From an uncultured Gammaproteobacteria bacterium (GTDB lineage Bacteria; Patescibacteriota; Microgenomatia; UBA1406; HO2-37-13b), in contig CAYQYZ010000006.1 of the NCBI GenBank assembly GCA_964422025.1, positions 4,157 to 68,156 of the forward strand: DNA of 64,000 nucleotides. Reading direction: 5' to 3'. Made by a program: the position numbers and the translations under genes. Below the pieces are notes generated by a model, which saw nothing but the letters and a program-made list of their open reading frames with translations, had not been told where the DNA came from and made no database searches. Positions 4,899-62,019 of this stretch are shown piece after piece (the first letter of the stretch is position 1; each line of letters opens with the position of its first letter).

Positions 4899-5189
4899 AT
4901 GGCTAGCGCACAAAACATCATGATTCTGATTTCAATTCTTATTTTATTTACCTGTGCAGCCATATTATTGTTTTTTTCGTTTATTTTTCTAAGTACGAAT
5001 CGATATACTACATTTCTAAAAAAATACACGATGTTTTTTGGAATCGATATCTCGAAAATACCCAAAAGCCCCATGATGCCCGATCCATTACTTCCCATGA
5101 TTCGACAAGGTCAAATAGGAGGAGTGCTCTTTATCTTGATGAGTATCGTACTATGCGGTGCTGGATTATTTCTTCTTCGGTATGTGTAA
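4899..5189 (+). CDS. Hypothetical small membrane protein (2 predicted TM helices)
   Basis: 96-aa ORF with two hydrophobic stretches. No recognisable family. Confidence 0.35.
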   Translation: MASAQNIMILISILILFTCAAILLFFSFIFLSTNRYTTFLKKYTMFFGIDISKIPKSPMMPDPLLPMIRQGQIGGVLFILMSIVLCGAGLFLLRYV

Positions 5190-5464
5190 TTGTACTAAGC
5201 TGTACTTTATCATATGTTAATAGTCTGTAATATGCATTATATGTCTTGACTGAAACTCATATCAGCGTTTTGGCGGAACTGCAATAATGGTTATTTATCG
5301 AAATAACTTGTGCGCAGTTCAAACCAATATCGCAAACAACTCCACCATCTCTGGCTTTAGCCGAGTTGTTCGAAATGTAGCAACAATCTTCAACACCGGA
5401 GCAAATGCGCTCATTAATGCTTCTGCGGATTAATATTTCTTCAAATTGCTTATAATAGAAAAGT

Positions 5465-6193
5465 ATGAACTCACATGTCGGCTTCGAAACAATCAACGGA
5501 AAGAAAGTTTTTAATATACTCACACAGTCCGATTCTACTGCAAAAAATTTAGTAATTATGAGTCACGGATTTAGAGGAAGCTCCATTGGCCCCGCCCGCA
5601 CATTTGTTGATTTTGAGTCTATTCTGACAAAGAATGGATTTTGTACGCTGCGCTTTGATCAACCCAATAGCGGTAATTCTGAAGGAAATTATGTTAATTC
5701 CTCGTTTAATGAATGGGTGCAGACAATCTCATATTTTGCTCAAAAATATTTAAATCTTGGATACAGAGTAGCACTTCTGGGTCAAAGTATGGGAGCGAGT
5801 GCAACCATGATTGCCGCTTCAAGCAATGAGCTGCATGAAAAGATTCCTTGCATTATGCTGTGGGTCCCAGATCCTGAATCGGATTATGTGAATCAAGAGA
5901 ACGAGATCGGAGAAGAAGCTGGGCAAAAATACCCAGAAACATTTTGGCAAGAAGCCCGAGATGCTAATTTTTTTGCTTCTTTAGAGAAATATCATGCAGG
6001 AATTCATTTGGTGTATGGGGAGCATGATCGGTACATTCAAGAGGAATTGCGGAATAAGGTAATTGAACGCATGCAAGTAAAACATCAACCGTTTATGGTT
6101 TTACCCGGACAAGATCATAGCCCCTGGGATTTTGATCAGGCTCAAAGAGTGTACGTCGAGGAATTGAATTTTCTCAAGGAATACTTCAAGTAG
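5465..6193 (+). CDS. Alpha/beta-fold hydrolase
   Basis: HGFRGSS oxyanion-type motif, GQSMGA nucleophile elbow (G-x-S-x-G), and late D/H residues (GEHD.., GQDHSPW). Confidence 0.8.
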   Translation: MNSHVGFETINGKKVFNILTQSDSTAKNLVIMSHGFRGSSIGPARTFVDFESILTKNGFCTLRFDQPNSGNSEGNYVNSSFNEWVQTISYFAQKYLNLGYRVALLGQSMGASATMIAASSNELHEKIPCIMLWVPDPESDYVNQENEIGEEAGQKYPETFWQEARDANFFASLEKYHAGIHLVYGEHDRYIQEELRNKVIERMQVKHQPFMVLPGQDHSPWDFDQAQRVYVEELNFLKEYFK

Positions 6194-6221
6194 AAAAAGT
6201 TGCTGATTAGAGCACTAATCG

Positions 6222-6327
6222 TTGGTTTTGGCGTTGGCGCATTTTTGCGAGTTCCAATAACAATTACAATATCAACATCTTCGCCATCATCGAGCGTTGA
6301 TGTATCTACTGTATATTCACCTTCCAA
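6222..6327 (-). pseudogene. Remnant of the 3' end of a LytR_C-domain gene (paralog of 11526..12110)
   Basis: About 100 nt with roughly 75-80% identity by eye to 11630-11730. The translated fragment EGEYTVDTSTLDDGEDVDIVIVIGTRKNAPTPKPT matches ETDYTVDPAELDSSEDVDVVVIIGVRKNAPTAKPT. No N-terminal part is present, and it overlaps the stop of the FG-GAP gene. Confidence 0.55.
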
Positions 6328-8785: not shown

Positions 8786-8819
8786 TATAAATGAACGAGC
8801 AGGTTGTTGTCAAGTAATT

Positions 8820-11525: not shown

Positions 11526-12110
11526 TTACGGCACTTTTGTTGGGGTAGGTGATGGAGTAGTGGTTCCGGTCGTTGGCGTTACTGCACTTGTGGTCGGCTT
11601 GGTAGTCACGCTGGTTTCTGCTGAAGTGGTGGGTTTTGCCGTTGGCGCATTTTTGCGAACACCGATAATGACCACAACATCAACATCTTCGCTACTATCG
11701 AGTTCTGCAGGATCAACGGTATAGTCTGTCTCGAGGAGCTCTGAAAGCTCGTTTGTAACTGAAGAGGGGACTGATGACTTTACTTGAATTTCAGTGGTTT
11801 TATAATCGTAATTATCAGCATTTGCCGTTGAATCAATCACGAAGTCGGCTCCTTCCAAAAGCGTTTTAACTTTGGTTGCTTCCCCAACTACACCACTTCC
11901 ATTAAGAATTTTTACTTTTAAATCTTCTTTATTAACCGTTGGTTCTTCAGTCGGCATTGGTGCTTGCTCAATCGGAGCGGAAGTAGGGGAGATTGTGGCT
12001 GATTGAGTGTTTGAACTACGCATGTAGAAAAATCCTGCCGCACCCGCACCTAAAAGCAAAGCAACTACAATAATAATAATCCATTTCTTTCGTGAGCTTG
12101 ATTCTTCCAT
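11526..12110 (-). CDS. LytR_C domain-containing membrane-anchored protein
   Basis: N-terminal TM helix, then LKVKILNGSGVVGEATKVKTLLEGADFVIDSTANADNYDYKTTEIQV...DVDVVVIIG (LytR C-terminal domain pattern) and a T/P-rich tail. Confidence 0.7.
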   Translation of the reverse strand: MEESSSRKKWIIIIVVALLLGAGAAGFFYMRSSNTQSATISPTSAPIEQAPMPTEEPTVNKEDLKVKILNGSGVVGEATKVKTLLEGADFVIDSTANADNYDYKTTEIQVKSSVPSSVTNELSELLETDYTVDPAELDSSEDVDVVVIIGVRKNAPTAKPTTSAETSVTTKPTTSAVTPTTGTTTPSPTPTKVP

Positions 12111-12280
12111 AGCTACCTATAATAATACTTGTGAATTTAAATTGCAAGGGCTTTCGTAATATTGTAAGGCTTTTTCTACAATAGATATAAAGGCAGTATA
12201 TTCTCTCGGATCAATTCATTAATGTATTTAGGCTGTCCTATTTGACAGTTGCCTAAATTAATGATATACTACCGGCTATT

Positions 12281-12994
12281 ATGTCAAAACAAAAAAGTTT
12301 GGTAACCCTTTCGGTCTTCGTTATGAGTGCATTTTTAATGCTTGCAACTCGTAATTTTGTGCAAGCAGTTAGTAATAATGCTAAAGTCACTATTTGTCAT
12401 GCCACAAGCAGCGTAACTAACCCTTATACCCAAAATGTCGTTTCAGAGAATGCAATTGGAGGACATTTCAATAACCCTGGATCTCCTAAAGCTGGCCATG
12501 AACTTGATTTGTATTTCCAAGGAGAAGTAGATTGTCCAGGCGGAACAAATCCAACATCGACTCCTACTAATGTGCCCACAGCTACTCCAACCACGCCAGT
12601 TCAATGTGATGGAGAATGTTATCCAAATCCAACAGCAACGCCCACAGTAACACCAACTCCTACTCAAGGAAATGTAGACGAAGGTAATATTTATGATCCA
12701 TGCGTGTTAAATCGATGCCCAAGTGCTACGCCAACCGCTACACCTACGGCTACTTTAACTCCAACCAGTACTCCCGCACCAACTAGTTCCCAAGGTGGAA
12801 CCGGAGGAAGTTCAGATGGTGGGTCGAATAATAATTCTTCAAGCTCAAGTTCTTCAAACAACGGAAGTGTTGCTGGTGCCACCACCACGCTCGCTGCAAC
12901 TGGAGTATTTGAAGATATGTTCATGAACATGGTCGGACTTGCTGGAGTTGCCCTTAGTGGACTTTCAGCAGTAATGTATGCCAAAAAGAGCTAA
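12281..12994 (+). CDS. Secreted T/P/S-rich surface protein with a C-terminal LAATG cell-wall sorting signal (sortase substrate)
   Basis: Signal peptide. LAATG (nt 12890-12904) is followed by a 25-aa hydrophobic segment and a KKS tail. Its stop overlaps the sortase start. Confidence 0.75.
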   Translation: MSKQKSLVTLSVFVMSAFLMLATRNFVQAVSNNAKVTICHATSSVTNPYTQNVVSENAIGGHFNNPGSPKAGHELDLYFQGEVDCPGGTNPTSTPTNVPTATPTTPVQCDGECYPNPTATPTVTPTPTQGNVDEGNIYDPCVLNRCPSATPTATPTATLTPTSTPAPTSSQGGTGGSSDGGSNNNSSSSSSSNNGSVAGATTTLAATGVFEDMFMNMVGLAGVALSGLSAVMYAKKS

Positions 12995-13535
12995 AAAGAT
13001 TTCCAAAAGTGCTCGAATTCAATCTCTCCTTATTTTAACTGCAGGAGTCATCTGTTTGACTACCTTCGTAGGATATAAAATTCACCGAGCAAATCGCATG
13101 TCATTCGAACAGGTTCCACCAGTAAATACAAAAGCCAATCTTGCTCATTCTCCTGAAAGTATTGAAATAATTCCTCTGTCAATTAAACTGTCGGTCGAAC
13201 CAGCGCGAGTAGAGGGCAATAGATGGGAAATAAATGAAAAAGGCGCATCATACTTGGTATCATCCGCGCCACTGAAAGACAATGGAAATACTGTTATTTA
13301 TGCGCATAATAAAGCGACCATGTTTGGGTCACTTTCCCAGATAAAAATTGGATATCCAATAACCTTAAAAACTCGAGAAGGAAAAATTCACTCGTATTCA
13401 GTGTATAAAATTGAAACGGTAACGCCCGATAGGGTAGATGTGATTAAGTCAAACGGTGAGGAGGAACTTACACTCTATACCTGCACTGGGTTTGCAGATA
13501 CCAAGCGATTGGTCGTAAAAGCAAAGCCAATTTAA
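12978..13535 (+). CDS. Sortase family transpeptidase
   Basis: N-terminal TM anchor, His in VIYAHN, catalytic TLYTC motif, and a downstream Arg (KRLVVKA). Confidence 0.85.
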   Translation: MPKRAKKISKSARIQSLLILTAGVICLTTFVGYKIHRANRMSFEQVPPVNTKANLAHSPESIEIIPLSIKLSVEPARVEGNRWEINEKGASYLVSSAPLKDNGNTVIYAHNKATMFGSLSQIKIGYPITLKTREGKIHSYSVYKIETVTPDRVDVIKSNGEEELTLYTCTGFADTKRLVVKAKPI

Positions 13536-25943: not shown

Positions 25944-26885
25944 TCATTTGTTTCCTGAATGAAATTTCTTGTGAACTTCGCGCAACCCAAAGTTTGTTAC
26001 GTGAGTGTAAATCTGAGTAGTAGCGATATTTTTATGCCCTAACATTTCTTGTACCGAGCGGATATCAGCGCCGTGTTGAAGTAAATCAGTAGCAAACGAA
26101 TGTCGCAATACATGGGGCCCTATGCGAAAGAGAATTCCCGCTAATAGTCGATACTTATCTACCAGTCGCTCAATCGAACGTGGGGTCAGACGCGATTTTT
26201 CATCGGTTAGCTCGTCACTGGCTTTAGGGCCACTGTATCGAATAAACAAGGGCTTATACGGATCATCGCGAGCTTCCATATACTGTCGCAACCTGTCAGT
26301 AGCACTGTCTGAAAGAAAAACAACTCGTGCGTGACCTCCTTTTCCAACTACGCCAAATTCACCTTCTGTTAAATTCACCATATCTCGATCAAGTCCAGCA
26401 AGCTCCGACACGCGTAAACCTGTTGAAAACAATACTTCAAGAATTGCTCTGTCGCGCAGTCCCATGGTGGTACTTACATCGGGAGCACTCAGTAATTTTC
26501 CCACTTGTTCATCGGACAAGAATTTAACGGTGCGGTCACCCATTTTTCCCAGTTCAATTTGCTCAGGGGAAAGGACCTTATGATTTTTCTTAATTAAGAA
26601 TCGGAAAAAAGACCGCAAAGCAACTAAAAAATAATTTTGTGTTTGGCGCTTCAGTTCACCTTTAAATGGGTTAAAGTATTCACGCGACAGGTACAGGCGA
26701 AATTTCCGAATCGTCTCTTCATCAATATCAGTGACATTCCATTCTTGACCATCCTTATGCATCCAATCTTGAAAGAAGCGGAGGTAATAGGAATACATCC
26801 GAACCGTTTTTTGAGAAAGATTTTTATCCAGTTCGCAATATTCCAAGAATCGATCAATTCCTTCTTTGAGCTGCATATATTTCAT
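25944..26885 (-). CDS. Tyrosine recombinase (XerC/XerD-like integrase family)
   Basis: C-terminal RHSFATDLLQHGADIRSVQEMLGHKNIATTQIYTHV (R..H-x2-R..Y) and an N-terminal SAM-like domain. The likely start is MKYMQLKEG (ATG 26885 or 26876). Confidence 0.85.
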   Translation of the reverse strand: MKYMQLKEGIDRFLEYCELDKNLSQKTVRMYSYYLRFFQDWMHKDGQEWNVTDIDEETIRKFRLYLSREYFNPFKGELKRQTQNYFLVALRSFFRFLIKKNHKVLSPEQIELGKMGDRTVKFLSDEQVGKLLSAPDVSTTMGLRDRAILEVLFSTGLRVSELAGLDRDMVNLTEGEFGVVGKGGHARVVFLSDSATDRLRQYMEARDDPYKPLFIRYSGPKASDELTDEKSRLTPRSIERLVDKYRLLAGILFRIGPHVLRHSFATDLLQHGADIRSVQEMLGHKNIATTQIYTHVTNFGLREVHKKFHSGNK

Positions 26886-26942
26886 ATTAAACGACGTGAC
26901 AAAAATAGTCAACACTTTGACAATGAGTGGTATAATGGAGGC

Positions 26943-27323
26943 ATGAAGAGGGGCGACGTGAAAAGAAATCTTTTTACCGAATTTCGGGGAACTAGTTTGT
27001 TGCAAAATTTATTAACCGCAGAAGATATATATCGGTCATTCGATCGTGGACTTGTAACTACAGACGAAGCAAGTCGACTTATTGATGAACAAGTTTTAAA
27101 TGGCGTAAGTACTCAAGATAGAATTTTGCTTGATGGTGACCCAAACGATTTTGAAAGTAACGGAACAAATGACCCCACGTTGTTGCGAATTCTCCGAAAA
27201 GAATTGACTGAAGGAATTAGTTTACGAGAGCAGGTAAGAAATTCGGCTGATGAATTCCAATTTTCACGTCTGAGTTTTGACAAAAACAACGGCAGCAGTT
27301 CTAGAAACGGAAAAGAGAGATAG
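26943..27323 (+). CDS. Hypothetical protein (126 aa)
   Basis: This is the 3' part of track ORF 26637..27323. The ATG at 26943 is preceded by TGgTATAAT (26931-26936). The upstream part of the track ORF is antisense to the recombinase. Confidence 0.45.
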   Translation: MKRGDVKRNLFTEFRGTSLLQNLLTAEDIYRSFDRGLVTTDEASRLIDEQVLNGVSTQDRILLDGDPNDFESNGTNDPTLLRILRKELTEGISLREQVRNSADEFQFSRLSFDKNNGSSSRNGKER

Positions 27324-27446: not shown

Positions 27447-27534
27447 GGAGAGGTCGCATAGTGGTCTAGTGCAGCGGTTTACTAAACCGCCGTATCGCAA
27501 GATACCGCGAGTTCAAATCTCGCCCTCTCCGCCA
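27447..27534 (+). tRNA. tRNA-Ser-like type II tRNA with anticodon ACU (unusual), CCA encoded
   Basis: Acceptor ggagagg/cctctcc and discriminator G are identical to the neighbouring tRNA-Ser. Anticodon stem gcggt/accgc with loop ttACTaa, variable arm gtatc-gcaa-gatac, T arm gcgag-ttcaaat-ctcgc. Confidence 0.7.
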
Positions 27535-38640: not shown

Positions 38641-41040
38641 TTACTGAGTAGTATTCGTCAATCGTTCGTAAACAACGGACCGATCGAGCGCATTTACCTC
38701 ATTATCTTCGTCAGCAATGATATCACATAATTTGTTGCCGACCAGACAAAGTGCATAGTCGTTTGCTCGAATTTGACCATCTTTATTAATGTCAGCGGCT
38801 TTTTCGAACGATTTGGAGTCACCTAAAACTTCTTCATCCACTACTGATAAATCAAATCTGATTCCATCGTCATTAGTGGCTTTCTGCGGGCATGATAAGG
38901 ATGTTCCATCGTCATTGTTAATATCACATGTGACCATTGCCCGGTTTTGGGCTGGAACTTCTGAAGGAATTGTTTGTGAGAAACGGCCCGTTGCTCCGGG
39001 TTCAATTCTCAATGGATTATCGTACGTTTGGCAATTATCTCCATTCACATCACAGGCTTTAACCGAAACCGATTCGACTGTTTTTTCAGTCGATTGATTA
39101 GTAATGACGAATGTTGATGTAAGGGATAGGGGACCAGTACTTGCCGGTCGTCGACCTCCACGTGAGCCCGATGAACCCCGAGATCTATTACCGCTCCCAA
39201 GTGTGCCGGTTCCGCCTCGTCCACAAGCCCGATCAAAAATTTCTCCAATCGTCGCAGACACTTCTGAGATATCAATAACGTCGGTTGATACTGACTCCAT
39301 AAATTCCACATCTGAGAATAATCCCGTTTTTACAAACACACCATACGTATTGTTTTTATTTTTAGCTACTCGAGAATCAGCATTAGCATTCGCGTATGTA
39401 TTTTCAGAACAAACCGATGCACATGCATTTGTATTCAATCGCGTGTATCCATCTTTCTCATTCTGACGCGGTGCGCATCCAGCCGCTTTTTCATCGGCTT
39501 TATTTAACATATTAGGACCATCTGGGTACACACAGAACCCATTATTGTTGGCGCCTGCATAGCGAACTACCGAAGGAGTGCCATCGGAAATAAATATCGT
39601 TTTTCCCGATGTGCTTTCGAGCGCTTCTTTGATATTCGTCCAATGCAAATTGCGTACGATAGGAAATTGGAAATCTGCGGCGGTAAAGGGTCCTTTCTTA
39701 GCTTGAACATCGCGAGCAAAGAAATTTGTATAGAAATCAATATTATCTTGCGGGTTTGCGCGACCATAAATATGTACTGCATCGGTAATAGCAGTTTGGT
39801 ACTGGTTTAAAATTGCTTGCGTCGATTCAGATGCATCGATCATAAAGGTAATATCAGTACTACACGATGGGGGAGTAGGAGTTTGCGTACGACTAGGAAC
39901 ACGTGTAGGAGGCGTGGTAGGTGCACGTGTTGGCGGAACCGATGGTGCTCGTGTTGGTGGAATCGACGGTACTCGAGTTAGCACAGCAGTAGGCGCTACT
40001 GTATTTCGTGGGGTTACAATGCGCGCAATGGTTGGATCAAGTGGAATAGTAGGTTCAGGCGTCGTTAACACTCCAGGGCACGCAAGCGAAGAAGCGCCAA
40101 TCGTTGAATCGGTACGAACCGGCCTACTTTGTGCTCCTGATAAGGTGTAATATGAAAACGACACTCGGACAGGACTTCCATCTTTCAACCATGAAGGAAC
40201 ATTTCTAAAATAATAAAAATCAACTTGCGGATTCACTTTCGAATTTGGATTTGATGGATTTCCACTACGAACTTTTACATGTAATGCTCCTTTGGGAACT
40301 CCAGAAATTCCATATGTTGTCGCCGGATTCCATTCGATAAGTAAATTATCAGCCGGGTCACTTGTAGCGGGTTTCCACATACGATATTCCTGAGGAGTCG
40401 TAGGACCAGTAAATCCACTTGAAGCCGGATCTACTACATCAGCAATGCCAATATCATACGTCCCGCCAGTTCCCGATAATGTAATCTTACTTATTAACGG
40501 ATCTACCACTACCCGAAATCCAACTCCACATGCATATTGCGACGATTTAAATACTCCTTCAGCCCCACCTGTACCCGTAGAACCCGTGCGTGGAGTAGGG
40601 CGCACATACCCAGGACATTGGCGTGTATCATTTACATATTTCTGCTGGCATGAGCCCGAACTTAGGTCGCACGCAAGTGTAATTCCGGTTGCCTTATCAA
40701 TACTATTACATTGCTCATTACTCTTACAGAATTCATTACATTGCCCCAAACTATTCGGCCCCGTCGCATTACACGGCGGATTTTTAGGATCTCGAACAGC
40801 AGTACATTTACCAATCGCACGATCACAGGTAGTTTGCGTTCCGGTTGTTGTATCAGTTCCACAGTCACCATTCCCCGTACACGTTTTTCCACATAACGCA
40901 CCCGCTGCGTTGGTTCGTACATCTTGGGTTTTATTCACACCTAATCCAAAAATAGATCCAACGACCATTAGAAATAGGGAAGCGACAGTGAATGTTAAAG
41001 CAATTTCTCCACGAGTAGAATATCGGTGACGCATAACCAT
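38641..41040 (-). CDS. Membrane-anchored surface protein: Cys-rich modules, P/T linker, vWA-like domain (DASES MIDAS) and C-terminal dockerin-like repeats
   Basis: The likely start is MVMRHRYSTRGEIALT (ATG 41040), with TGTGTATAAT 6 nt upstream. Features: DITFMIDASES..ISDGTPS, then DINKDGQIRANDYALCL and DEDNEVNALDRSVVYERL. Confidence 0.65.
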   Translation of the reverse strand: MVMRHRYSTRGEIALTFTVASLFLMVVGSIFGLGVNKTQDVRTNAAGALCGKTCTGNGDCGTDTTTGTQTTCDRAIGKCTAVRDPKNPPCNATGPNSLGQCNEFCKSNEQCNSIDKATGITLACDLSSGSCQQKYVNDTRQCPGYVRPTPRTGSTGTGGAEGVFKSSQYACGVGFRVVVDPLISKITLSGTGGTYDIGIADVVDPASSGFTGPTTPQEYRMWKPATSDPADNLLIEWNPATTYGISGVPKGALHVKVRSGNPSNPNSKVNPQVDFYYFRNVPSWLKDGSPVRVSFSYYTLSGAQSRPVRTDSTIGASSLACPGVLTTPEPTIPLDPTIARIVTPRNTVAPTAVLTRVPSIPPTRAPSVPPTRAPTTPPTRVPSRTQTPTPPSCSTDITFMIDASESTQAILNQYQTAITDAVHIYGRANPQDNIDFYTNFFARDVQAKKGPFTAADFQFPIVRNLHWTNIKEALESTSGKTIFISDGTPSVVRYAGANNNGFCVYPDGPNMLNKADEKAAGCAPRQNEKDGYTRLNTNACASVCSENTYANANADSRVAKNKNNTYGVFVKTGLFSDVEFMESVSTDVIDISEVSATIGEIFDRACGRGGTGTLGSGNRSRGSSGSRGGRRPASTGPLSLTSTFVITNQSTEKTVESVSVKACDVNGDNCQTYDNPLRIEPGATGRFSQTIPSEVPAQNRAMVTCDINNDDGTSLSCPQKATNDDGIRFDLSVVDEEVLGDSKSFEKAADINKDGQIRANDYALCLVGNKLCDIIADEDNEVNALDRSVVYERLTNTTQ

Positions 41041-41056
41041 ACTATCATTATACACA

Positions 41057-43498
41057 TTATTGCGTAATTTGACCAAATCGTTCGGTGACTACCGCAAAAT
41101 CTTGAGCGTTGATTACGCCATCCAATATAATGTCATATTTTTTTGCTCCGGAAACATTTCGCTGGTTCTGCAATAGTACAAAATCAATTACATTCACACG
41201 TCCATCACCATTAAGATCAGAAGCTTGCAAAAATGTTTGCGCATTTCCGGTAACCGCTCGATTTGTCGCGGATAAATTAAATTGTACGCTCTCATTTTGT
41301 GTCTCTTTTCGAGGGCAGGGAAGGGTAGAGCCATCTGCGTAATTTACGCTACAAGTAATAAGCTCTCTACTCGAATTAGGCACATTTTCGGGAATAGATT
41401 GCGAGAATTGCGCAATCTGCTGTGGCTCCGCTTGCACCGGATTGGTAAATGTTTGACATGCCAGTCCTGATGAATTACATGTTTTAACATCAACGGATGA
41501 AATTGTTTTATTGGTTGATTTATTTTGAATCGAGAATGATGACATTGATGGTCGAGAACCTGCTTGTTGTTGAGGTGGTACTGGATGACAGGGAGCACTT
41601 GCAATGATACCATCTAGCTTGCTAAGGAATATAGCCATATTGTCGTAGATTTTATCAGGAGGTACTCCGGCCTTACCTAAGTTTAATTTTGAAATTCCTT
41701 CATTTCCTGGAAGTCGCACGGCATGGGTAGCATCCGACGAGCCGACCGGATATGGCTCCTCACATTTATCATTAAATCTGGCCCCGAACATGCGGTCCTT
41801 TTTACAATCATTCTCCTTCATGTAGTTATCATCTCGACCGGGAGTATCCCATACAGGAGTACATCCTTTCGCATTTGTGCCATCCGTATCATACACACAC
41901 TGTAATGGAGTATTGGCGGGATTATTCGCTCTGATGTTGTTAAACGGACTAAGCGCCGATGGAATTCCATCGGAGATTAAAATTTTAACGTCGTCTTTTC
42001 GCTTCATTATTACTTCGAAAGCAGCATTTAAGTTTGTCCAATTTTGATCATCAGCAAGGCTAAATTGAATGGTTTCGTTTGCTGGGCCACCTGACTGACG
42101 AGGTGCAATAATGTTGAACGTATCGTAAGAGAAAGTAACATCTTTGAATACTTTACCTGAAAAAAATCCGTTTAATGGACGCTCAATTTCCGGCTTAATA
42201 TTCTTTTGTTGTGTAGAAGATGTATCAATCATAAAATAAACCGATTTATAACAACGAGGTGGCTGCGTTACGGTCGGAGTAGCCGTTGGAGTAGCGGTTG
42301 GAGTAGGAGTTTTAGTTGCCGTTGGAGTAGCAGTTGTCGAAGGCGTAGGAGTTCCACTAGTAGTGGTGGAAGGCTTACACTCAAGTGAATCATTACCCGG
42401 CAACAAACAGTACATCTTTGGATTTGTAATTTCGCCGTACTGACGATACCTACAATTAGGCTGACCAAGCGCATGCTTTTTGCACTGTACTTCCCCAGGA
42501 ATTGTACACACTTTACCACATTCTATAGCTGGCGTAGGTGTTTGAGTTGTTGTAGGAGTTACTGTCGGAGTCACATTCGTACAAATCTTTGCACGAGCCT
42601 GTTGTGACCATTGACGTTTCTCTCCGGCAACTTTACCCTCATACGTAATGTCTACTCTATATCGTGCTGATCCAATCATCCAGTCAGGCATTTTGAAATA
42701 ATAGCTTCCCACCGTGTCCTTACCTCCACCACCACCATTTATTGTGATACGAATTTCTTTATCATTTACCGGATCAAACGAAACAAAAATTCCCGCGCTC
42801 CCACCACTTGGATAGGTAATCTGTTTCCCAATAGGACCTTCTATATTTGGCACGGCACGAAGTCTCTGGCTATTAACTGCAGTGAACACATTTGCAGGAT
42901 TGTCAGGATCAGTGATTGTTAATGAATTCAACTGTGGGTCCCAGCGAAAAGTAAATTCAACTTTACATGGTAATTCAAGAACACTAAACGCAGTACCCAC
43001 ACCTGACCCAATCGCTCCAGTTGGAGGAAGCCCGGTAACTCCGCCTTCAGCACCTCCACCTCCAGCTCCTCCAGTTCCTCCAGAACTTCCTCCGGTAGGA
43101 ACAATGCAAAATCGTTGAGGACATGCTAGGCCAGACTTACAATCAGATGCTGTAATACATGCGCCCCCTACATCTTTTTTGTCGGTTCCTCCTCCTACAC
43201 GTGCTGTAACACCCGGACAGGAGTCTTTGGCCAGTGCTGGGCGGCATTGACCCGACGCTAAATGGCACAGCACTAAAAAGCCTGCGGCCTGCGAACAATC
43301 GCTATTCTTACTACAACCCGTAGCTCCACATTGAACCCCTCCGGCGGCGCTTGTACGCACGTCCTGCGGTGTCTGGCGATTTAAGCCAATAACGGTACCA
43401 ACAAGCATGGTTATTAAGGATAAAACGGTAAGCGTAAGGGCAATCTCCCCTTGTTTTGGAGCGGATAAGATACGTTTAAAGCTTCTGGCAAAGACCAT
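41057..43498 (-). CDS. Paralogous membrane-anchored surface protein with Cys-rich modules, vWA-like domain (DTSST) and dockerin-like C-terminus
   Basis: The likely start is MVFARSFKRILSAPKQGEIALT (ATG 43498), 9 nt after TATAAT (43513-43508 on minus). Features: VYFMIDTSSTQQ..ISDGIPS, then DLNGDGRVNVIDFVLLQ and ILDGVINAQDFAVVTERF. Confidence 0.65.
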   Translation of the reverse strand: MVFARSFKRILSAPKQGEIALTLTVLSLITMLVGTVIGLNRQTPQDVRTSAAGGVQCGATGCSKNSDCSQAAGFLVLCHLASGQCRPALAKDSCPGVTARVGGGTDKKDVGGACITASDCKSGLACPQRFCIVPTGGSSGGTGGAGGGGAEGGVTGLPPTGAIGSGVGTAFSVLELPCKVEFTFRWDPQLNSLTITDPDNPANVFTAVNSQRLRAVPNIEGPIGKQITYPSGGSAGIFVSFDPVNDKEIRITINGGGGGKDTVGSYYFKMPDWMIGSARYRVDITYEGKVAGEKRQWSQQARAKICTNVTPTVTPTTTQTPTPAIECGKVCTIPGEVQCKKHALGQPNCRYRQYGEITNPKMYCLLPGNDSLECKPSTTTSGTPTPSTTATPTATKTPTPTATPTATPTVTQPPRCYKSVYFMIDTSSTQQKNIKPEIERPLNGFFSGKVFKDVTFSYDTFNIIAPRQSGGPANETIQFSLADDQNWTNLNAAFEVIMKRKDDVKILISDGIPSALSPFNNIRANNPANTPLQCVYDTDGTNAKGCTPVWDTPGRDDNYMKENDCKKDRMFGARFNDKCEEPYPVGSSDATHAVRLPGNEGISKLNLGKAGVPPDKIYDNMAIFLSKLDGIIASAPCHPVPPQQQAGSRPSMSSFSIQNKSTNKTISSVDVKTCNSSGLACQTFTNPVQAEPQQIAQFSQSIPENVPNSSRELITCSVNYADGSTLPCPRKETQNESVQFNLSATNRAVTGNAQTFLQASDLNGDGRVNVIDFVLLQNQRNVSGAKKYDIILDGVINAQDFAVVTERFGQITQ

Positions 43499-43546
43499 AT
43501 ACCTACGATTATATACATAATAGCCTATTTGTTTCAACCCGCAAAT

Positions 43547-43568
43547 TTGTGCCTATTTTGTGCCTAAA
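43547..43568 (+). repeat. Two contiguous 11-bp iterons (ttgtgcctatt ttgtgcctaaa) at the left edge of the ORF-free locus
   Basis: Read directly. They are the inverted counterpart of 44725-44757. Confidence 0.75.
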
Positions 43569-44045
43569 AATGCAAGTCCCCGACCCCAAAAAGTGCCAGG
43601 GAGCAGGGGAGTTTGGAGCATAATAAGGCTATATTAACACTTCCCCAAATGGCCTATAAAACGGATATTGACGAAATTACGCATTAATTACATAAAGGGG
43701 AAATAGGACCAAAGTAGTCAGTCGGCAGGAAGAGAAATTAATGCATTAATAACAAGAAATTAAAAAATGCCAAAAATAGCAGTTCCCCGGAAGTGATGAG
43801 TCAGAACGTCGTAAAAGATACAATTTACGACGTTGTAGATCCTTGTTTCCCTGACCATATTTTCGTCTCTAATACAAGTGGTCGGTTATGTGAATATTCC
43901 GTGATAAACGAAAAGGAGGAGGAGAATGTTGGATGTGCAAATTAGTGTTCTCTTTTAATAATTGCACTGTTCTATTATTTCGTAATAATTACGTTTTGGT
44001 GGTATTCCCTGGAACGCTATTTTGGAAGGTTTTTACACGTGTTTA

Positions 44046-44450
44046 TTTGGAGCGTTATAACGCTCCATTCTGTACTTTTTGTGCCTAATTTCGCGTATTT
44101 AGCATGTATATGGATTGATCCGATTTAGAGCGTAGTACCAGTCCGCACAGATCAATTTGTGGCTAGATTCTAGACCTCTTCACGCCTTCCGTGCATGGAT
44201 ATAGCCATCGTAAGAGCACGCACGCTCTATGTCGATTCTGGAGGGCCTTAGTTTAGAGCGCCGTATAGGTCTAATTCACTTATTTCGTGGCTAATTCTTT
44301 GCATATTCAACATCAGCATCTACATCAATTTAGAGCCTTACAATAATCTAATTCGAAGTTTTCATGCCTAATTCCGTTAGTTATGCACATTATGCATATG
44401 CACAGTTTGGAGTGTAGGACGTCGCTATTTGTGTATTGTAAGAACCACAC
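44046..44450 (+). repeat. Tandem array (~77-nt period) of bipartite units: TTTRGAGC, 27 nt variable, RTGSCTAAT-like 11-mer, ~32-nt linker
   Basis: Units start at 44046, 44124, 44252 and 44329, and the 27-nt spacing was counted in all four. Degenerate units occur at ~44211 and 44406. Confidence 0.7.
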
Positions 44451-44724
44451 TCTCAGAAACAACTTTTAAGTAATTCGCATATTTTGCACGAATTACGCAT
44501 TAATTATCAAATACTACAGGACAGTATATTGTCTTATAGTAAATTATACGGAAAACTCACGTCCGTCACTTTTACTACTCCCCTCCTCCCTACTTCATAC
44601 CTAATATCATGCATTCTAGGCACGATTTTTTTATAATTACGCACGAATTTTCTCGCTTAGAGAGTTTTTTTGGACAAATAATACATAAATTTGACCCTTA
44701 TCGTCGAATGCATTTCAGAGGTGT

Positions 44725-44757
44725 TTCAGGCACAATCTAGGCACAGATTAGGCATAA
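44725..44757 (-). repeat. Three contiguous 11-bp iterons (ttatgcctaat ctgtgcctaga ttgtgcctgaa on minus) at the right edge of the ORF-free locus
   Basis: Read directly. They abut the stop codon of 44760..45605. Confidence 0.75.
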
Positions 44758-44759
44758 AA

Positions 44760-45605
44760 TCACCACTTAACCGTAAGAAGCGTTATCACAAACACAGCAC
44801 CCAACACGAATAAATACTCTCGAATCCTCTCTCTAAACAACCGCGATGTTAAATGCGCGCTCAGTAATCCACACAAACTATAAAACAACGCTGTTACCAC
44901 CAATGAGAATACACTGGGCGTAATCGGAATAAACGAAAACACCATGACCGCCTGTGCCAAAATAACCGAAACAACCAACGCATGTTTAAATACTGATCGT
45001 TCAACATGTTCTTGCGGGTTAATCGACCACACGAAATGAAGCGCCAACGGCAACGACATAACAAAAATCAGTAACCCATTCGCCACAAACAACAAGCGCA
45101 GTGAGAATAGTAGGCTCGTCGCCAAAAACATCGTCAAAGTCAAAAACAGATAGTTAATCGAGAACGCCGCCCGAAACAATTGCAGGCTCTTCTCTACTCC
45201 CACGTTAAATATATTTTGCGACAATAATAATGCATATACTGATATCGAATACAGCACAGCAAAGGGTGCGCGGGCCAACCACCGTTGAGGTAGAAAGAAA
45301 TAGAACAAATAAAAGACAACGGAAAAATACAGCGGAGGAATAAAAAGCATCAGCCATTCTTTATCCGAAATCCCCTCAAGAATCGAAAAGTATGTTAAAA
45401 AATATACCAATACAATTATAGGAATCACAAAAAAACTAGCTGCTTCGAAACTGAAATACGTAGAAACGATCATTAACAATGTTAGAAAAAAGGTAGAAAT
45501 AATAAACCGGCGGCGTTTTTCTATGCGTATAAACAATTTGAACAAGTTCTTTGAAATATCTTTTCTTTTAAGCATAATTCGTATAGACTTTTGCAACATC
45601 ATCAA
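44760..45605 (-). CDS. Hypothetical polytopic membrane protein
   Basis: 281 aa with about 7 hydrophobic helices. The start is uncertain (45605 or 45575), and it overlaps the yebC stop. Confidence 0.5.
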   Translation of the reverse strand: MMMLQKSIRIMLKRKDISKNLFKLFIRIEKRRRFIISTFFLTLLMIVSTYFSFEAASFFVIPIIVLVYFLTYFSILEGISDKEWLMLFIPPLYFSVVFYLFYFFLPQRWLARAPFAVLYSISVYALLLSQNIFNVGVEKSLQLFRAAFSINYLFLTLTMFLATSLLFSLRLLFVANGLLIFVMSLPLALHFVWSINPQEHVERSVFKHALVVSVILAQAVMVFSFIPITPSVFSLVVTALFYSLCGLLSAHLTSRLFRERIREYLFVLGAVFVITLLTVKW

Positions 45606-46260
45606 GGTCTTCTAGCACATCTAACAACCGACTTACTTTTTCATGAGACTCTTGCGCCAATTCCACCATCGTGAGTGGTCGATAGAAAATTTCTACTGGT
45701 GCATCCCTGACTTCTCCAATCTTTTCAAAGGGAATATATAAAATGTAGGATTCCTCATCTTCTTCCATGTCGAGTATAGAGAATTTTTCGCCCATCTCAA
45801 ATGCTTCAACCTCGGTCGCAGAACTCTTCGAGAGTATGATTCGTCCACATTTTTGAAAATTGTACGCAACAGAATTTATATTTCCCATCTTTCCCCCGTT
45901 TTTTTCGAGTGCTAATTTAACATCCGCATGTGTTCTATTGGAATTATCCGTAGTTGCTACAATTAAAAATGAACCGCTCTGGGGCCCAAAACCTTCGTAT
46001 ACAACCTCTTTAAGAGAGTCGGCTCCCCCACCCTTTCCTTTTTCAATTGCCCGTTCAATATTTTCACGAGGCATATTTTCTTCTTTAGCCTGTTGTACAG
46101 CCAAGCGAAGCCGAACATTTTTGTCCGGGTCTCCCATTCCCCCACCATCTTTTACAGCAACCGTAATAAGACGAGACAGCTTTGAGAAGACGAGTCCCCG
46201 TTTCTGATCGGTAATTCCCTTTTTACGCTTAATTTGCGACCATTTAGAATGTCCTGACAT
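45568..46260 (-). CDS. yebC: YebC/PmpR family DNA-binding transcriptional regulator
   Basis: MSGHSKWSQIKRKKGITDQKRG is the hallmark N-terminus. 230 aa. Confidence 0.9.
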   Translation of the reverse strand: MSGHSKWSQIKRKKGITDQKRGLVFSKLSRLITVAVKDGGGMGDPDKNVRLRLAVQQAKEENMPRENIERAIEKGKGGGADSLKEVVYEGFGPQSGSFLIVATTDNSNRTHADVKLALEKNGGKMGNINSVAYNFQKCGRIILSKSSATEVEAFEMGEKFSILDMEEDEESYILYIPFEKIGEVRDAPVEIFYRPLTMVELAQESHEKVSRLLDVLEDLDDVAKVYTNYA

Positions 46261-52643: not shown

Positions 52644-53984
52644 CTACATAGAACTCGTACTATCCACAGAGTAGAACTTGACTCTATCCCCCCGGAACAT
52701 GAGGTCGATTTCACCGGTAGATCCATTTCGGTGTTTGGCGATATACAGTTTAATCATTTTTTTCGTTTCATCCATAAGGTCTTCGGTTTCTTTTTCGTAG
52801 TATAAGAACATGACGACGTCTGCATCTTGCTCGATCGATCCAGATTCACGTAAATCCGCCAGCTGAGGTTTCTTCTCTCCTCTATGCTCAATGGCTCGCG
52901 AAAGCTGAGAAAGGGCCAATACCGGAACTTTCAATTCACGGGCAAGGTTTTTAAGGTTTTGAGAAATAAACGATACCTCTTGCACTCTATTTTCTACTTT
53001 CTTTCCGGGGTTAACAAGTTGTAAGTAATCGATAATAATGAGTTTCAGGCCTTTTTCGATTTTCAATTTTCGGGCTTTTGTACGCATTTCCAAAATAGTT
53101 GCACCAGGAGTATCGTCAATATAAATAGGCGCGTCGGATAAATCGCCCATTGCCTGTGTTAACTTTCCCATATCGTCATCGGTTAACTTTCCAGTTTTAA
53201 GCCTCCAGGCATCAATATCGGCTTGTCCTACCAGCAAACGATCAACAAGTTCTTCCTTGCTCATTTCTAGTGAAAATATACCGACCGGTTGCTTTTCAAC
53301 AAGCGCTGCGTGAAGCGCAATATTCAGCGCCATACTTGTTTTACCAATACCCGGACGTGCAGCTAAAATAAGCAAGTTTGAATCTTGCATACCGGCTAAC
53401 TTATTATCTAAATGCTTAAAGCCGGTTCCAATTCCTCGCAAACCATCGCCTTTACTAGCTGACTCAAGCCGTTCAAAACTTTCGGCCAAAATGCTTTTTA
53501 AGGTTACGAAATCTTGGTGTAAGTACGCCTGCGAGAGAGCGAAGATGCCTGTCTCAGCTTCGTTTAGCAAAATTTTCACGTCTCCAGTCTCCTCGAATGA
53601 CCGTTCAACTAAATGACTAGCCATAGAGATTAATGAGCGTTTTACGTACGCGGCTTTTACAATGCGCGCATAATGTTCTACATACGCGCTCGTAGGCACA
53701 GTATCGATTAAATCAGCCAAATACGATCCCCCACCGATTTTGGTAAGTTCCCCATGCTTTTTAAGCTCCGCGGAGAGCGTAACAACATCGACCGGTTGGT
53801 TTTTTTCAAACAATGTAAGCATGCTCGAAAAAATGAGCCCATGAGCCGGAACATAAAAATGCTGGGCTCCAATAATTTCAGCAACCAGCGAGACTGCGGC
53901 CGGATCAATAAGAATACCGCCTAATACGGCTTTTTCTGCTTCAGTATCATGCGGAGGAGTTTTGGTTAGCGAGCCACTTGGCAT
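52644..53984 (-). CDS. dnaB: Replicative DNA helicase DnaB
   Basis: PPHDTEAEKAVLGGIL N-terminus, Walker A ARPGIGKTS, IIDYLQL, and the SQLSR motif. Confidence 0.92.
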   Translation of the reverse strand: MPSGSLTKTPPHDTEAEKAVLGGILIDPAAVSLVAEIIGAQHFYVPAHGLIFSSMLTLFEKNQPVDVVTLSAELKKHGELTKIGGGSYLADLIDTVPTSAYVEHYARIVKAAYVKRSLISMASHLVERSFEETGDVKILLNEAETGIFALSQAYLHQDFVTLKSILAESFERLESASKGDGLRGIGTGFKHLDNKLAGMQDSNLLILAARPGIGKTSMALNIALHAALVEKQPVGIFSLEMSKEELVDRLLVGQADIDAWRLKTGKLTDDDMGKLTQAMGDLSDAPIYIDDTPGATILEMRTKARKLKIEKGLKLIIIDYLQLVNPGKKVENRVQEVSFISQNLKNLARELKVPVLALSQLSRAIEHRGEKKPQLADLRESGSIEQDADVVMFLYYEKETEDLMDETKKMIKLYIAKHRNGSTGEIDLMFRGDRVKFYSVDSTSSM

Positions 53985-59721: not shown

Positions 59722-59862
59722 TATGTGTGGAGTTTAACAAATTGTTTTTCTGTGTCAACGGCTTATAAGTCTCATAAATGATGATTTAGATTGTCCCAAA
59801 AGCAATTTTTTACTCTTATACTACCTAAACATCTACCCCCTACTCTGATATATAATCAATAC

Positions 59863-62019
59863 ATGTCCCTTGTTCATTTGCAAGTACGCAATCCAAAAGA
59901 CGACGAAACACCCATAGAAGCGGCGAGTCAAATTTTTGCTTCACTACTTCCTTCGTACCTTCCCCCGTTTAAACGGCTCTATATTCAGCCAAAATATTAC
60001 TCTTTCGAGATTTATTTGCTTGCGCAAACTATTTATATGTACGCAACGACGAGTGAAAAGAGCGAAACGTTCGTAAAAAGCCTTATTACATCCTCATTTA
60101 CCAACTCAAAAATCATTAAAACCAAGGATCCGCTTTCGTATCTAACCAGCTCGCCGCACACGGCGCTTGGAGAAGTCGCACTCTCTTCATCCTTTTACCT
60201 GCCTATCAAAACATATTACGACTTTAAAGACGTCGATCCCCTTTCCTCAATTCTCGGATTCCTGGCACGAAGCAGCCCAAGTCAAAAAGCCGCCATTCAG
60301 ATTCTTATTACGCCTGCATCATTTGCCTGGGGAAAATCGGCTGCTGCATTTGCGCAAAAGATGAGTTACGACAAAGGAGCCGATAAGTATGGCATGAACC
60401 CGCAAAAAATGATTATTTCTCGAAAAACCGCTTTTTCAGGTGGAAAAGCTCTAATCCGCTTGCTTACTGCTGACACAACAGACGAAGGCGCAATGAGTTA
60501 CTTACACAATTTGGCCGGTACATTCGGAACGTTTTCACTGGGCGATGGTAACCAATTTAGCTTCAAAAAACGCAAAATTCTTAAAAAACAGCTGTTAAAT
60601 CGAATGGTCAACCGCACTACCTATATGCTCGAGCGTGGAGATCAGATTTTAAATGCGCAAGAATTGGCTAGCTTATGGCATCCGCCAGGAATTTTGTTGG
60701 GTGGGGTAAAAAACATTGCCTGGGGCAAAGCCCTATCCGGTGAACCGCCTGACGATTTGCCTATTTCTGATGAAATGGATGACGAGCAGAAAAAAGACAT
60801 TAATTTCTTCGGAAAAACTGAATTTAAGAATAAAGATCAAATTTTTGGCATAAAAACCGCGGACCGTCGCAAACATATGTATATTATCGGGAAAACAGGC
60901 GCAGGAAAGTCGACATTAATCGCTAATATGGCTATTGATGACATCCGTCGCGATCGTGGAATTGGCATTATTGACCCACACGGAGATTTATCGGAGATTA
61001 TTCTTGACTACATTCCTAAGCGTCGCATAAACGATGTGGTGTATTTAGAGCCATTTGATAGCGAACGTCCATTTAAATTAAATGTTCTAGAAGTTCATAA
61101 CCCTGAACAAAAACACTTAGTCGCTTCCGGAATTGTTTCTATTTTTTCCAAATTATACGGAAAAAGCTGGGGTCCACGGCTAGAATACATATTACGTAAC
61201 GTTATCTTAACTCTTTTGGAGATTCCTAACGCAACGCTCGTTGACGCCCTACGAATACTCTCAGACGACGAATATCGAGCAAAAGTAGTGCCTCAAATTA
61301 ACGACCCGGTGCTTAAAAACTTCTGGAACGCCGAATTTGCCAAAATGGGCGATAAACTGCGTGCCGAAGCCGTTTCCCCTATTCAAAACAAGGTCGGTCA
61401 GTTTGTTACATCAACAATGGTTCGAAATATCATTGGCTCTCCAAAATCATCAATTAACCTAGCAGAAATTATGGACGAAGGCAAAATCCTAATATTGAAT
61501 CTCTCTCAGGGCAAGTTAGGAGAGGATAACGCGTCTCTTCTGGGAGCGATGATTATTACTCAAATTCAGCTTGCAGCAATGGGTCGGTCGTTTAGTAAAG
61601 AAGAAGACCGTCGCGACTTTTTCTTATATGTTGATGAGTTCCAGAATTTTGCCACGAGTTCTTTCATAAAAATCCTTTCCGAGGCACGAAAATACCGATT
61701 ATCACTCACATTGGCCAATCAATATACCGAGCAACTGGAGCTTGAAATTCAACGGGCAATTTTTGGAAATGTAGGTACGCTTATGTCATTTGTTCTAGGC
61801 GCGCGCGATGCCTATTTTATGTCGAAGGAATTCGGGGAGCTTTACACGGAAGCAGATCTGGTTTCCCTGGGTAAATTCGAAACGGTCCTTAAACTATCGG
61901 TCGATAACATGACTTCCCAGCCATTTCCCGCCTACACGCTTCCCCTACCTAGCTTGAAGAACGACAATCGAGAAAAGATTATTACCACGAGTAAAGAAAA
62001 ATACGGAAGGAAGTCTTAA
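59863..62019 (+). CDS. TraD/VirD4-like (type IV secretion coupling protein / HerA-DUF87-type) P-loop NTPase with an uncharacterised ~330-aa N-terminal region
   Basis: Walker A IIGKTGAGKST, GIIDPHGDL, Walker B FLYVDEFQNF, TLANQ. ATG 59863 lies 6 nt after TATAAT (59851-59856). The track start at 59791 is a TTG. Confidence 0.6.
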   Translation: MSLVHLQVRNPKDDETPIEAASQIFASLLPSYLPPFKRLYIQPKYYSFEIYLLAQTIYMYATTSEKSETFVKSLITSSFTNSKIIKTKDPLSYLTSSPHTALGEVALSSSFYLPIKTYYDFKDVDPLSSILGFLARSSPSQKAAIQILITPASFAWGKSAAAFAQKMSYDKGADKYGMNPQKMIISRKTAFSGGKALIRLLTADTTDEGAMSYLHNLAGTFGTFSLGDGNQFSFKKRKILKKQLLNRMVNRTTYMLERGDQILNAQELASLWHPPGILLGGVKNIAWGKALSGEPPDDLPISDEMDDEQKKDINFFGKTEFKNKDQIFGIKTADRRKHMYIIGKTGAGKSTLIANMAIDDIRRDRGIGIIDPHGDLSEIILDYIPKRRINDVVYLEPFDSERPFKLNVLEVHNPEQKHLVASGIVSIFSKLYGKSWGPRLEYILRNVILTLLEIPNATLVDALRILSDDEYRAKVVPQINDPVLKNFWNAEFAKMGDKLRAEAVSPIQNKVGQFVTSTMVRNIIGSPKSSINLAEIMDEGKILILNLSQGKLGEDNASLLGAMIITQIQLAAMGRSFSKEEDRRDFFLYVDEFQNFATSSFIKILSEARKYRLSLTLANQYTEQLELEIQRAIFGNVGTLMSFVLGARDAYFMSKEFGELYTEADLVSLGKFETVLKLSVDNMTSQPFPAYTLPLPSLKNDNREKIITTSKEKYGRKS

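Follow-up and report, generated by a model that had tools for sequence, protein, structure and literature searches.

Among plasmid partition centromeres, parC of R1 has 11-bp iterons that are bound by ParR, and sopC of F has tandem 43-bp units that each contain an inverted repeat. On chromosomes, datA, DARS1 and DARS2 of Escherichia coli and the DnaA-box clusters of Bacillus subtilis are control loci that bind DnaA outside the origin, and in the datA/DARS-type loci both the arrangement and the orientation of the sites matter. The core sites of tyrosine recombinases have a defined anatomy, 11-6-11 in dif and 13-8-13 in loxP, and OLE RNA is a large bacterial non-coding RNA that lies beside the gene of its membrane partner OapA. 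Here we describe a gene-free locus of 1.2 kb (positions 43538-44759) within a 64,000-nt stretch of contig CAYQYZ010000006.1 (assembly GCA_964422025.1), hereafter the window, and compare it with these systems. The locus lies next to an operon of two genes, yebC and a gene for a membrane protein of the DUF5656 family.

Bacteria of the candidate phyla radiation are uncultured, and the organization, segregation and control of their chromosomes are almost wholly unstudied. We find that the locus is one member of a family of ~200 copies in Roizmanbacteria and related Microgenomates. The element it contains is unannotated and found throughout this lineage, and its conservation is comparable to that of essential RNAs or origin sequences. 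Judging from its sequence, we see about an even chance that it is a conserved cis-acting DNA element, namely an ordered platform of protein-binding sites beside the yebC-DUF5656 operon.

A conserved gene-free element downstream of DUF5656

As the initial annotation of the window had claimed, the locus is devoid of genes: the longest open reading frame (ORF) at 43538-44759 is 51 aa, and none reaches 60 aa. Both flanking genes are on the minus strand, with the 3' end of the DUF5656 gene (44760-45605) on one side and the 5' end of a dockerin-protein gene (41057-43537) on the other. The locus is conserved in close relatives, and alignment with three of them (L001, L007 and L011, whose DUF5656 proteins are 98%, 88% and 72% identical to that of the window) reveals near-invariant blocks between freely diverging sequence. 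This alignment places the whole conserved element at 43544-44757 on the minus strand, its motifs running 5' to 3' in the same direction as yebC and DUF5656.

One of its conserved sequences is the 28-mer ACGTCGTAAATTGTATCTTTTACGACGT (43806-43833, minus), a 28-nt palindrome that occurs once in the whole window. We scanned one genome per species with a DUF5656 profile, which yielded 80 loci, and metagenomes with the 28-mer, which yielded at least 120 contigs with one copy each. The 28-mer is found in 77 of the 80 species genomes (identical in 45, with 1-4 mismatches in the rest), and two of the three genomes without it are represented by contigs that end too early. It lies mostly 0.5-1 kb downstream of the DUF5656 stop codon and always on the same strand, reaching a distance of 2.7 kb in a few genomes with insertions. 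Among the metagenome matches listed, a same-strand DUF5656 gene is present upstream in all 104 of the 104 contigs that have enough upstream sequence. In most genomes that bear the 28-mer, DUF5656 has no more than 41-56% identity to the protein of the window.

Contigs carrying graded relatives of DUF5656 all show a gene-free gap of 1.0-1.3 kb after this gene. In L015, where DUF5656 is 56% identical, the gene beyond the gap is a different one and on the other strand, and the same holds for L021. Because the downstream gene of L015 differs, the gap belongs with the upstream yebC-DUF5656 pair and not with the dockerin gene; the element stays with DUF5656, and we reject the earlier proposal of an operator array for the surface-protein gene. 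Contiguity with DUF5656 is usual and not obligatory, since in L023 an opposite-strand ABC-transporter gene is inserted between DUF5656 and the element. In a single species, L069, two paralogous 200-aa ORFs of no assigned function are inserted at the same place (5130-6406).

We found no account of the element in the searchable literature on non-coding RNA of Roizmanbacteria and Patescibacteria or on DUF5656. Given that it is single-copy, present in every sampled Roizmanbacteria-like genome, attached to one operon and conserved in its motifs at the level of rRNA, it must do something important.

Motif order and module anatomy

The motif order of the window recurs in 19 further species. Read along the minus strand, the window element opens with three tandem 11-bp iterons at 44725-44757 (ATGCCTA, GTGCCTA and GTGCCTG; 2.5 copies at 44728-44754 by Tandem Repeats Finder, TRF), which are in the reverse of the orientation found in the modules described below, followed by a lone reverse iteron at 44615-44625. 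The first block conserved across the family is a polypurine block, GTAGAGGAGAGGGGAG-like, that often begins 10-40 nt past the DUF5656 stop codon and reads AGGGAGGAGGGGAGT in the window (44577-44591, minus). After it comes ACGNACGTG, often in the form TTCACGNACGTGAA, which is ACGGACGTG in the window (44558-44566, minus), and then CCTATAGTA, in one to three copies and in direct and inverted orientation. By alignment with relatives, the motif pair CCTATAGTA / TACTATAGG takes the form ACTATAAGACA..TGTCCTGTAGT in the window (44513-44548, minus), and this part includes a -10-like TATAAT at 44543-44548 (minus).

One module, a single TGTGGATAA and one to five further modules follow. Next are pyrimidine and purine tracts, to which the polypyrimidine tract TTCTCCTCCTCC of the window belongs (43915-43926, minus), and then the 28-nt palindrome, which in the window is the near-invariant AACGTCGTAAA-TTGTATCT-TTTACGACGTT (43805-43834, without strand), with 11-bp arms and an asymmetric center. 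The motif GRAGAGRAGTG leads to an A+T-rich stretch of 60-90 nt; in the window this stretch, after the palindrome and purine tract, occupies 43737-43790 (without strand) and includes the palindrome ATTAATGCATTAAT. The order closes with TACTATAAGAT, a last half-module (GTTAATATAGCCTTATTATGCTCCAAA at 43612-43640, minus) and a pyrimidine tract with a purine partner. In the window this tract and its partner are followed by a T-run (CTCCCCTGCTCCC..GGGGTCGGGGAC..TTGCATTTTT, 43569-43612, minus), where a terminator-like hairpin was read by eye from the sequence and was not called by a consensus scan. At the very end stand two tandem 11-bp iterons in module orientation, TAGGCACAAAA TAGGCACAAAT (43547-43568, minus; 43546-43566 by TRF). 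The tandem 11-mers at both edges, the lone copy between them, the palindromes (including one of 18 bp) and the hairpin with an 11-bp stem had all been listed in the initial annotation, and all are present.

Three other features on that list are present as well and prove by alignment to be confined to close relatives. These are the terminal inverted repeat, which is 26 nt long and 85% complementary in the window (43544-43569 against 44724-44749), the 16-nt direct repeat, and the GCATRKATAT linker motif. The 11-mer had further been noted for its abundance, and this holds for the locus only: across the window its 9-mer core, at one mismatch or less, is not enriched (17 found against 13.6 expected), and 7 of these 17 near-matches fall inside the 1.2 kb, or 2% of the sequence, where ~0.26 would be expected.

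The most regular part of the element is the module. Four units of the form TTTRGAGC-N27-RTGSCTA had been reported, and we recover them at 44046, 44124, 44252 and 44329; the pair TTTRGAGC/RTGSCTA is found nowhere else in the 64 kb, whether with this or any other gap of 15-44 nt and on whichever strand. On the minus strand each unit is reversed, and a module consists of an iteron, exactly 27 nt, and nnTCYAA. Specifically, the window has AATTAGGCAT-N27-GCTCTAAA at 44329-44373, AATTAGCCAC-N27-GCTCTAAA at 44252-44296, ATCTAGCCAC-N27-GCTCTAAA at 44124-44168, and AATTAGGCAC-N27-GCTCCAAA at 44046-44090, the last of which includes the 18-bp palindrome GGAGCGTTATAACGCTCC (all minus). A presumed degenerate unit at ~44211 is instead a lineage-specific insertion of ~51 nt that is missing from L011.

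Elements contain two to six modules of ~77 bp each, with 77 bp also the commonest period (75-78 bp in 27 of 60 cases). As module iteron, most species have AATTTAGCCTCAAAA and the lineage of the window has AATTAGGCACAAA; the iteron form TTTAGGCACAAA has TTTAGCCTCAAAA as its family form. Among the 80 genome loci and the window, the 27-nt spacing occurs 90 times on the element strand, as opposed to at most 6 times for any other gap or for the other strand. The spacing is thus kept in relatives, whereas the 27-nt cores, which had been described as largely unrelated sequence, are not free to vary. Across the family they share an A-run, a TTTAGA half-site and a TAT..A center, and the second half of the module is therefore palindromic. 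As such, a module is an iteron followed at a fixed distance by the 24-bp palindromic consensus TTTAGAnnGwTATnACnnTCTAAA.

Between the modules stands TGTGGATAA, the consensus DnaA box. In 68 of 78 loci it is perfect, occurs once and has a fixed orientation; the window version, TGTGCATAA (44381-44389, minus), is one mismatch away. The A+T-rich stretch lies 300-500 bp from the single box of the element.

Some elements have acquired insertions. In L007 (~12110-12130), L018, L031, L053 and L073, the iteron core itself is interrupted by a perfect G+C-rich palindrome of 20 nt (CCTGCCTGCCGGCAGGCAGG or a close variant), at TAGG^CAC in the lineage of the window and at TAGC^CTC in L031. Since palindromes of this type are also present at other sites, they probably represent a small mobile repeat that prefers certain targets. 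Repeats that resemble miniature inverted-repeat transposable elements (MITEs), with GTCATTCC...GGAATGAC ends, are inserted between motifs of the element in L151, L176, L195 and L212 (columns 222-365 and 840-1000 of alignment A3) and in L011 (10845-10880).

Features that favor reading of the element as duplex DNA

Several properties of the iterons are those of sites that are read as double-stranded DNA. The 7-nt core occupies the same A/T-flanked slot in both orientations, and its variant spectrum is equal in both, with TAGCCTC followed by TAGCCTT and TAGCTTC at similar frequency and then by TAGCTTT; within a given species, the variants in one orientation do not match those in the other. Close iterons of the same orientation are 11 bp apart in 12 cases from 9 species and at least five lineages, and the spacing has smaller maxima near 21, 31 and 42 bp. 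In some species, iterons form palindromes, TAGCCTCAAnnTTGAGGCTA.

The array also has a periodicity of A/T tracts. The autocorrelation of AAA/TTT peaks at 10-11, 21, 31-32 and 41-43 bp, a phasing of ~10.5 bp that neither the rest of the element nor the flanking genes show. Finally, the two halves of the palindromes stray from their common consensus independently of each other, which is how the binding sites of dimeric proteins behave, and not RNA stems. Iterons in both orientations, the 11-bp spacing, the ~10.5-bp phasing and independent palindrome halves are the reasons why we favor recognition of the duplex. The iterons are not variant DnaA boxes, as TTAGGCACA resembles TTATNCACA in the lineage of the window only and the family consensus is TTAGCCTCA.

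Tests for a folded RNA

A large structured non-coding RNA had been among the initial alternatives, and it finds no support in covariation. The inner three pairs of the modules are fully complementary in 43 of 275 modules, when 52 are expected with shuffled partners. Pairing of the 28-nt palindrome does not extend into its flanks, and for the flanks of the CCTATAG inverted pair 246 are paired vs. 257 expected (P = 0.94). A helix closing the element, between the 5' polypurine and the 3' polypyrimidine, is convincing by eye in several species, but we rejected it because the two blocks of one species complement each other no better than blocks taken from different species (score of 24.7 vs. 24.0, with a median rank of 47 of 108).

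Analyses of many sequences at once give the same picture. In the 3' half of 109 sequences, the top pairs by mutual information are mostly non-canonical (typically 5-60% canonical) and there are no antiparallel helix stacks. RNAalifold, applied to a clade of nine elements of 75-87% identity, returns a covariation term of just -0.81 kcal/mol, and an inserted MITE-like hairpin accounts for essentially all compensatory pairs in this set. Even L007, where DUF5656 is 88% identical, does not keep the hairpins that are predicted for the variable parts.

Folding energy is no better a guide. Of 40 elements, 34 have a more stable fold on the minus strand than on the complement, and composition explains this fully, with a strand difference of -26.2 vs. 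-26.7 kcal/mol in dinucleotide shuffles. Self-complementarity is in excess on both strands (z = -3.2 on one and -2.9 on the other), a symmetry expected for DNA inverted repeats.

Searches against known RNAs were also negative. Rfam 15, which includes OLE, GOLLD, ROOL, HEARO, raiA, RNase P, transfer-messenger RNA (tmRNA) and 6S, has no match in the window at the gathering score and nothing meaningful in the locus at E ≤ 10; eight diverse homologous loci have no match at E ≤ 0.1. ARAGORN finds no tRNA-like 77-nt unit and no tmRNA in 34 homologous loci, the sole tRNA being unrelated and flanking. Two roles for the iterons in RNA were considered and discarded. Pairing between forward and reverse copies, as kissing loops or helices, fails because the variants found in one species do not match each other and because forward copies show C-to-T changes as often as reverse copies show G-to-A changes, and a role as anti-Shine-Dalgarno seeds fails because the CCUC core is lost in the lineage of the window.

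Neighboring genes and other features of the window

The DUF5656 gene (44760-45605, minus) is the invariable upstream partner of the element and encodes a multi-pass membrane protein of 281 aa, whose named relatives belong to Candidatus Roizmanbacteria and to further Microgenomates within the candidate phyla radiation. Its AlphaFold model has ten helices at a predicted local distance difference test (pLDDT) score of 86, and comparison with solved structures gave no significant match. The yebC gene (TACO1/YebC family; 45568-46260, minus) overlaps it by 38 nt (45568-45605), with an identical overlap in relatives, and yebC and DUF5656 are therefore translated from one operon. The wider neighborhood is syntenic across relatives and includes lgt, a DksA/TraR zinc-finger gene, a Na+/H+ exchanger and two genes of no assigned function.

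On the other side of the element, the dockerin gene has a promoter-like site of its own, TTGAAA-18-TATAAT (43508-43537, minus), which is just outside the element and not part of it. The gene encodes 826 aa, and its N-terminal two thirds (41395-43342) have no nucleotide match in strain L001, which is otherwise ~95% identical. The segment is a hypervariable surface-protein region. An 811-aa paralog lies directly downstream (38641-41076), and a second pair of giant tandem paralogs, of 822 and 878 aa and with FG-GAP repeats, is found at 6317-11456, near a sortase gene (12978-13535).

Other genes of the window are of separate interest. A tRNA-Ser gene at 27447-27534 has the unusual anticodon ACT according to ARAGORN. 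The DnaB protein of the window (52644-53984, 446 aa) has no intein, in contrast to that of L007 (1166-3802, 878 aa), which has one with a LAGLIDADG endonuclease. A 742-aa protein at 59791-62019 has TrwB/VirD4-type coupling-protein and HerA-like ATPase domains. Many species-representative metagenome-assembled genomes with a Roizmanbacteria-type locus (L018, L023, L024 and others) are titled 'uncultured Gammaproteobacteria bacterium', which is evidently a mislabel.

Discussion

Among the alternatives put forward in the initial annotation, a protein-binding iteron DNA site fits the data best, although the locus is neither a chromosomal origin nor a terminus. If the element is a platform of this kind, each module would be a stretch of intrinsically bent DNA with sequence-specific proteins along one face, a dimer would bind the 28-bp palindrome, and DnaA would bind the DnaA box. 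The products of the adjacent operon are candidate partners, with YebC coming from a DNA-binding family: YebC proteins bind inverted-repeat-bearing promoter DNA in Borrelia (PMC7584230). The DUF5656 membrane protein could tether the complex to the membrane. The role we favor is in chromosome organization, tethering or replication control, and not in the initiation or termination of replication. Taken more broadly, we rate it slightly better than even that the locus is an unrecognized chromosomal element of Microgenomates, in which the ~1-kb motif assembly would form, with YebC and DUF5656, a membrane-linked nucleoprotein complex (for example a centromere or tether of a new type, or a replication-timing locus). 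A large scaffold RNA of low covariation, in a particle with DUF5656, would be just as new.

A number of points weigh against a DNA platform. At 77 bp, the preferred period of the modules does not correspond to an integral number of helical turns, DnaA and YebC are binders that we infer, and to our knowledge chromosomal cis-sites of such size are rare outside oriC. Others would suit a large non-coding RNA of ~0.8-1.1 kb on the minus strand, acting as a protein scaffold or sponge through primary sequence and short hairpins, a serious rival that we regard as the less probable of the two. Its transcription could start at the promoter-like ACG..TATAGT site or be shared with yebC-DUF5656, and it might form a membrane particle with DUF5656 as OLE does with OapA, the precedent for a large RNA beside the gene of a membrane partner. 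The orientation of the element is fixed relative to the upstream gene, its linkage to DUF5656 is strict in both the genomes and the metagenome contigs, and the polypurine block abuts the stop codon in many species, as expected of a co-transcribed RNA. In 77 of 109 elements, as opposed to a background of 4.8%, a TATAGT or TATAAT hexamer follows at 17-19 nt from the ACG of the motif before it, and this promoter-like geometry (NNNACG-17/18-TATAGT) is directed into the array. Of 157 distinct sequences, 155 have G-C or G-T, rather than A-C, at the only variable pair of the 28-nt palindrome, and G-T would correspond to G-U if that strand were an RNA; this count is biased because the metagenome sequences were chosen with a fixed 5' arm. 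The window element also ends in a pyrimidine/purine hairpin and a T-run. On the other hand, covariation tests are all negative across ~200 deeply diverged copies, folding energy is no better than that of the opposite strand once composition is controlled, the hairpins of the variable parts are not kept in L007, and neither the window nor eight relatives have an Rfam match. An RNA leaves unexplained the iterons in both orientations with mirrored variants, the 11-bp and 10.5-bp phasing and the perfect DnaA box, and in L023 it would be parted from DUF5656 by an opposite-strand gene.

The remaining explanations are far less probable. For a chromosomal oriC or iteron-type origin, which we think very improbable, one could cite the conserved perfect DnaA box, the 11-bp phasing of the iterons, the A+T-rich stretch beside the palindrome, and dnaB, which is 8 kb away in the window and in close relatives. 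However, cumulative GC skew falls monotonically through the locus over the whole 64 kb, and in 61 relatives neither GC skew (+0.060 on one flank, +0.054 on the other) nor AT skew changes sign across the locus, which rules out both oriC and the terminus (dif). There is one DnaA box only, the genes of the window include neither dnaA nor dnaN, and in two complete chromosomes, CP066689.1 (~905 kb) and OZ246401.1 (~776 kb), the locus is at ~82% of the record, which is weak evidence as the record start points are not known. We hold just as little expectation of a site-specific recombination site, dif-like or attB-like, in which the 28-bp palindrome would be the core and the flanking arrays accessory or arm-type sites. 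The palindrome does have the anatomy of a Xer/tyrosine-recombinase core (28 bp, with two 11-bp arms and a 6-bp center, ACGTCGTAAAT-TGTATC-TTTTACGACGT), is near-invariant and occurs once per contig, and the window carries an XerC/D-like gene. That gene (25944-27005, minus), which lies beside two tRNA-Ser genes, is 17 kb off and unlinked in relatives, and the skew does not change at the locus, which places the palindrome away from the terminus. A search of 2.9 million viral contigs did not find the 28-mer, so it is not a phage attachment core, and no integrated elements adjoin the palindrome in ~200 loci, the insertions that we saw being elsewhere in the element. The locus is not a plasmid fragment either, since a similarity search against plasmids gave no match, and no Rep, ParB, ParR or partition NTPase gene is beside the element, whose neighbors are yebC and DUF5656.

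Fainter still, and contradicted by comparison with relatives, is the case for a decayed non-autonomous transposon or a regulatory region of the dockerin gene. A transposon could explain the imperfect terminal inverted repeat of the window, and a regulatory region the position upstream of a hypervariable surface-protein gene. Yet the locus is single-copy and syntenic in ~200 genomes, with one copy per window or contig and always at the same place, and the inverted repeat is confined to close relatives; for a regulatory region, the downstream gene varies between species while the element stays, and the promoter-like site of the dockerin gene is outside the element. Least probable of all is a CRISPR-like or other guide-RNA array, the leading idea of the initial annotation, in spite of tandem units and an anchor spacing fixed at 27 nt. 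Neither TRF nor a repeat finder detects a long repeat family, and the units share just anchors of 8 nt and ~11 nt and the sub-motifs within their 27 nt. Strains and species have orthologous units: those of the window recur in strains that are 95% identical and in L007, and differences arise by point substitution, with no gain or turnover of spacers. The four variable segments searched as protospacers have no exact match in the 2.9 million viral contigs, and there are no cas, TnpB, IscB or other nuclease genes in the conserved neighborhood, according to Pfam annotation of the window and the gene tables of relatives.

A conserved platform of protein-binding sites would be directly testable, given that its motifs are short and the two neighboring proteins are obvious candidate partners. 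It would give a first point of access to the function of DUF5656 and to what YebC does as a DNA-binding protein in this lineage, and the 28-mer is a ready marker for these organisms in metagenomes.

Compared with known systems, the element is CRISPR-like in its tandem units with conserved anchors and intervening segments of fixed length. Its anchors are, however, 8-11 nt and degenerate, its units are not copies of one repeat, its intervening segments are partly conserved and evolve by point mutation, and it lacks cas genes and protospacer matches. The palindrome of 28-30 bp recalls dif and loxP through its 11-bp arms, asymmetric center of 6-8 bp and near invariance across the lineage; it differs in being always embedded in a larger array, away from the skew-defined terminus, with no linked recombinase gene and no recombination products seen. 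With OLE RNA and OapA, the element shares a long (0.6-1 kb) and highly conserved non-coding region that lies beside the gene of a small multi-pass membrane protein, in the same orientation, and is restricted to one bacterial lineage, whereas OLE has abundant covariation and an Rfam entry, the element has neither, and DUF5656 is unrelated to any solved structure.

Loci of the datA/DARS type have at least three DnaA boxes, where the element has one, and lack its 77-bp modules and 28-bp palindrome, and there is no sequence similarity. They are like it in being intergenic and away from oriC and in combining a consensus DnaA box with sites for DNA-bending proteins, which in our element are predicted. 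Partition centromeres differ in that the element has no linked gene for a ParA/ParM-type NTPase or for ParB/ParR, is chromosomal, single-copy and ~1 kb long with at least six motif classes in fixed order, and has units that share short motifs only and not their whole sequence. They nonetheless resemble it in their short iterons one helical turn apart, both direct and inverted, in their longer tandem units that each carry an inverted repeat, and in the placement of the site beside an operon that could encode its binding proteins.

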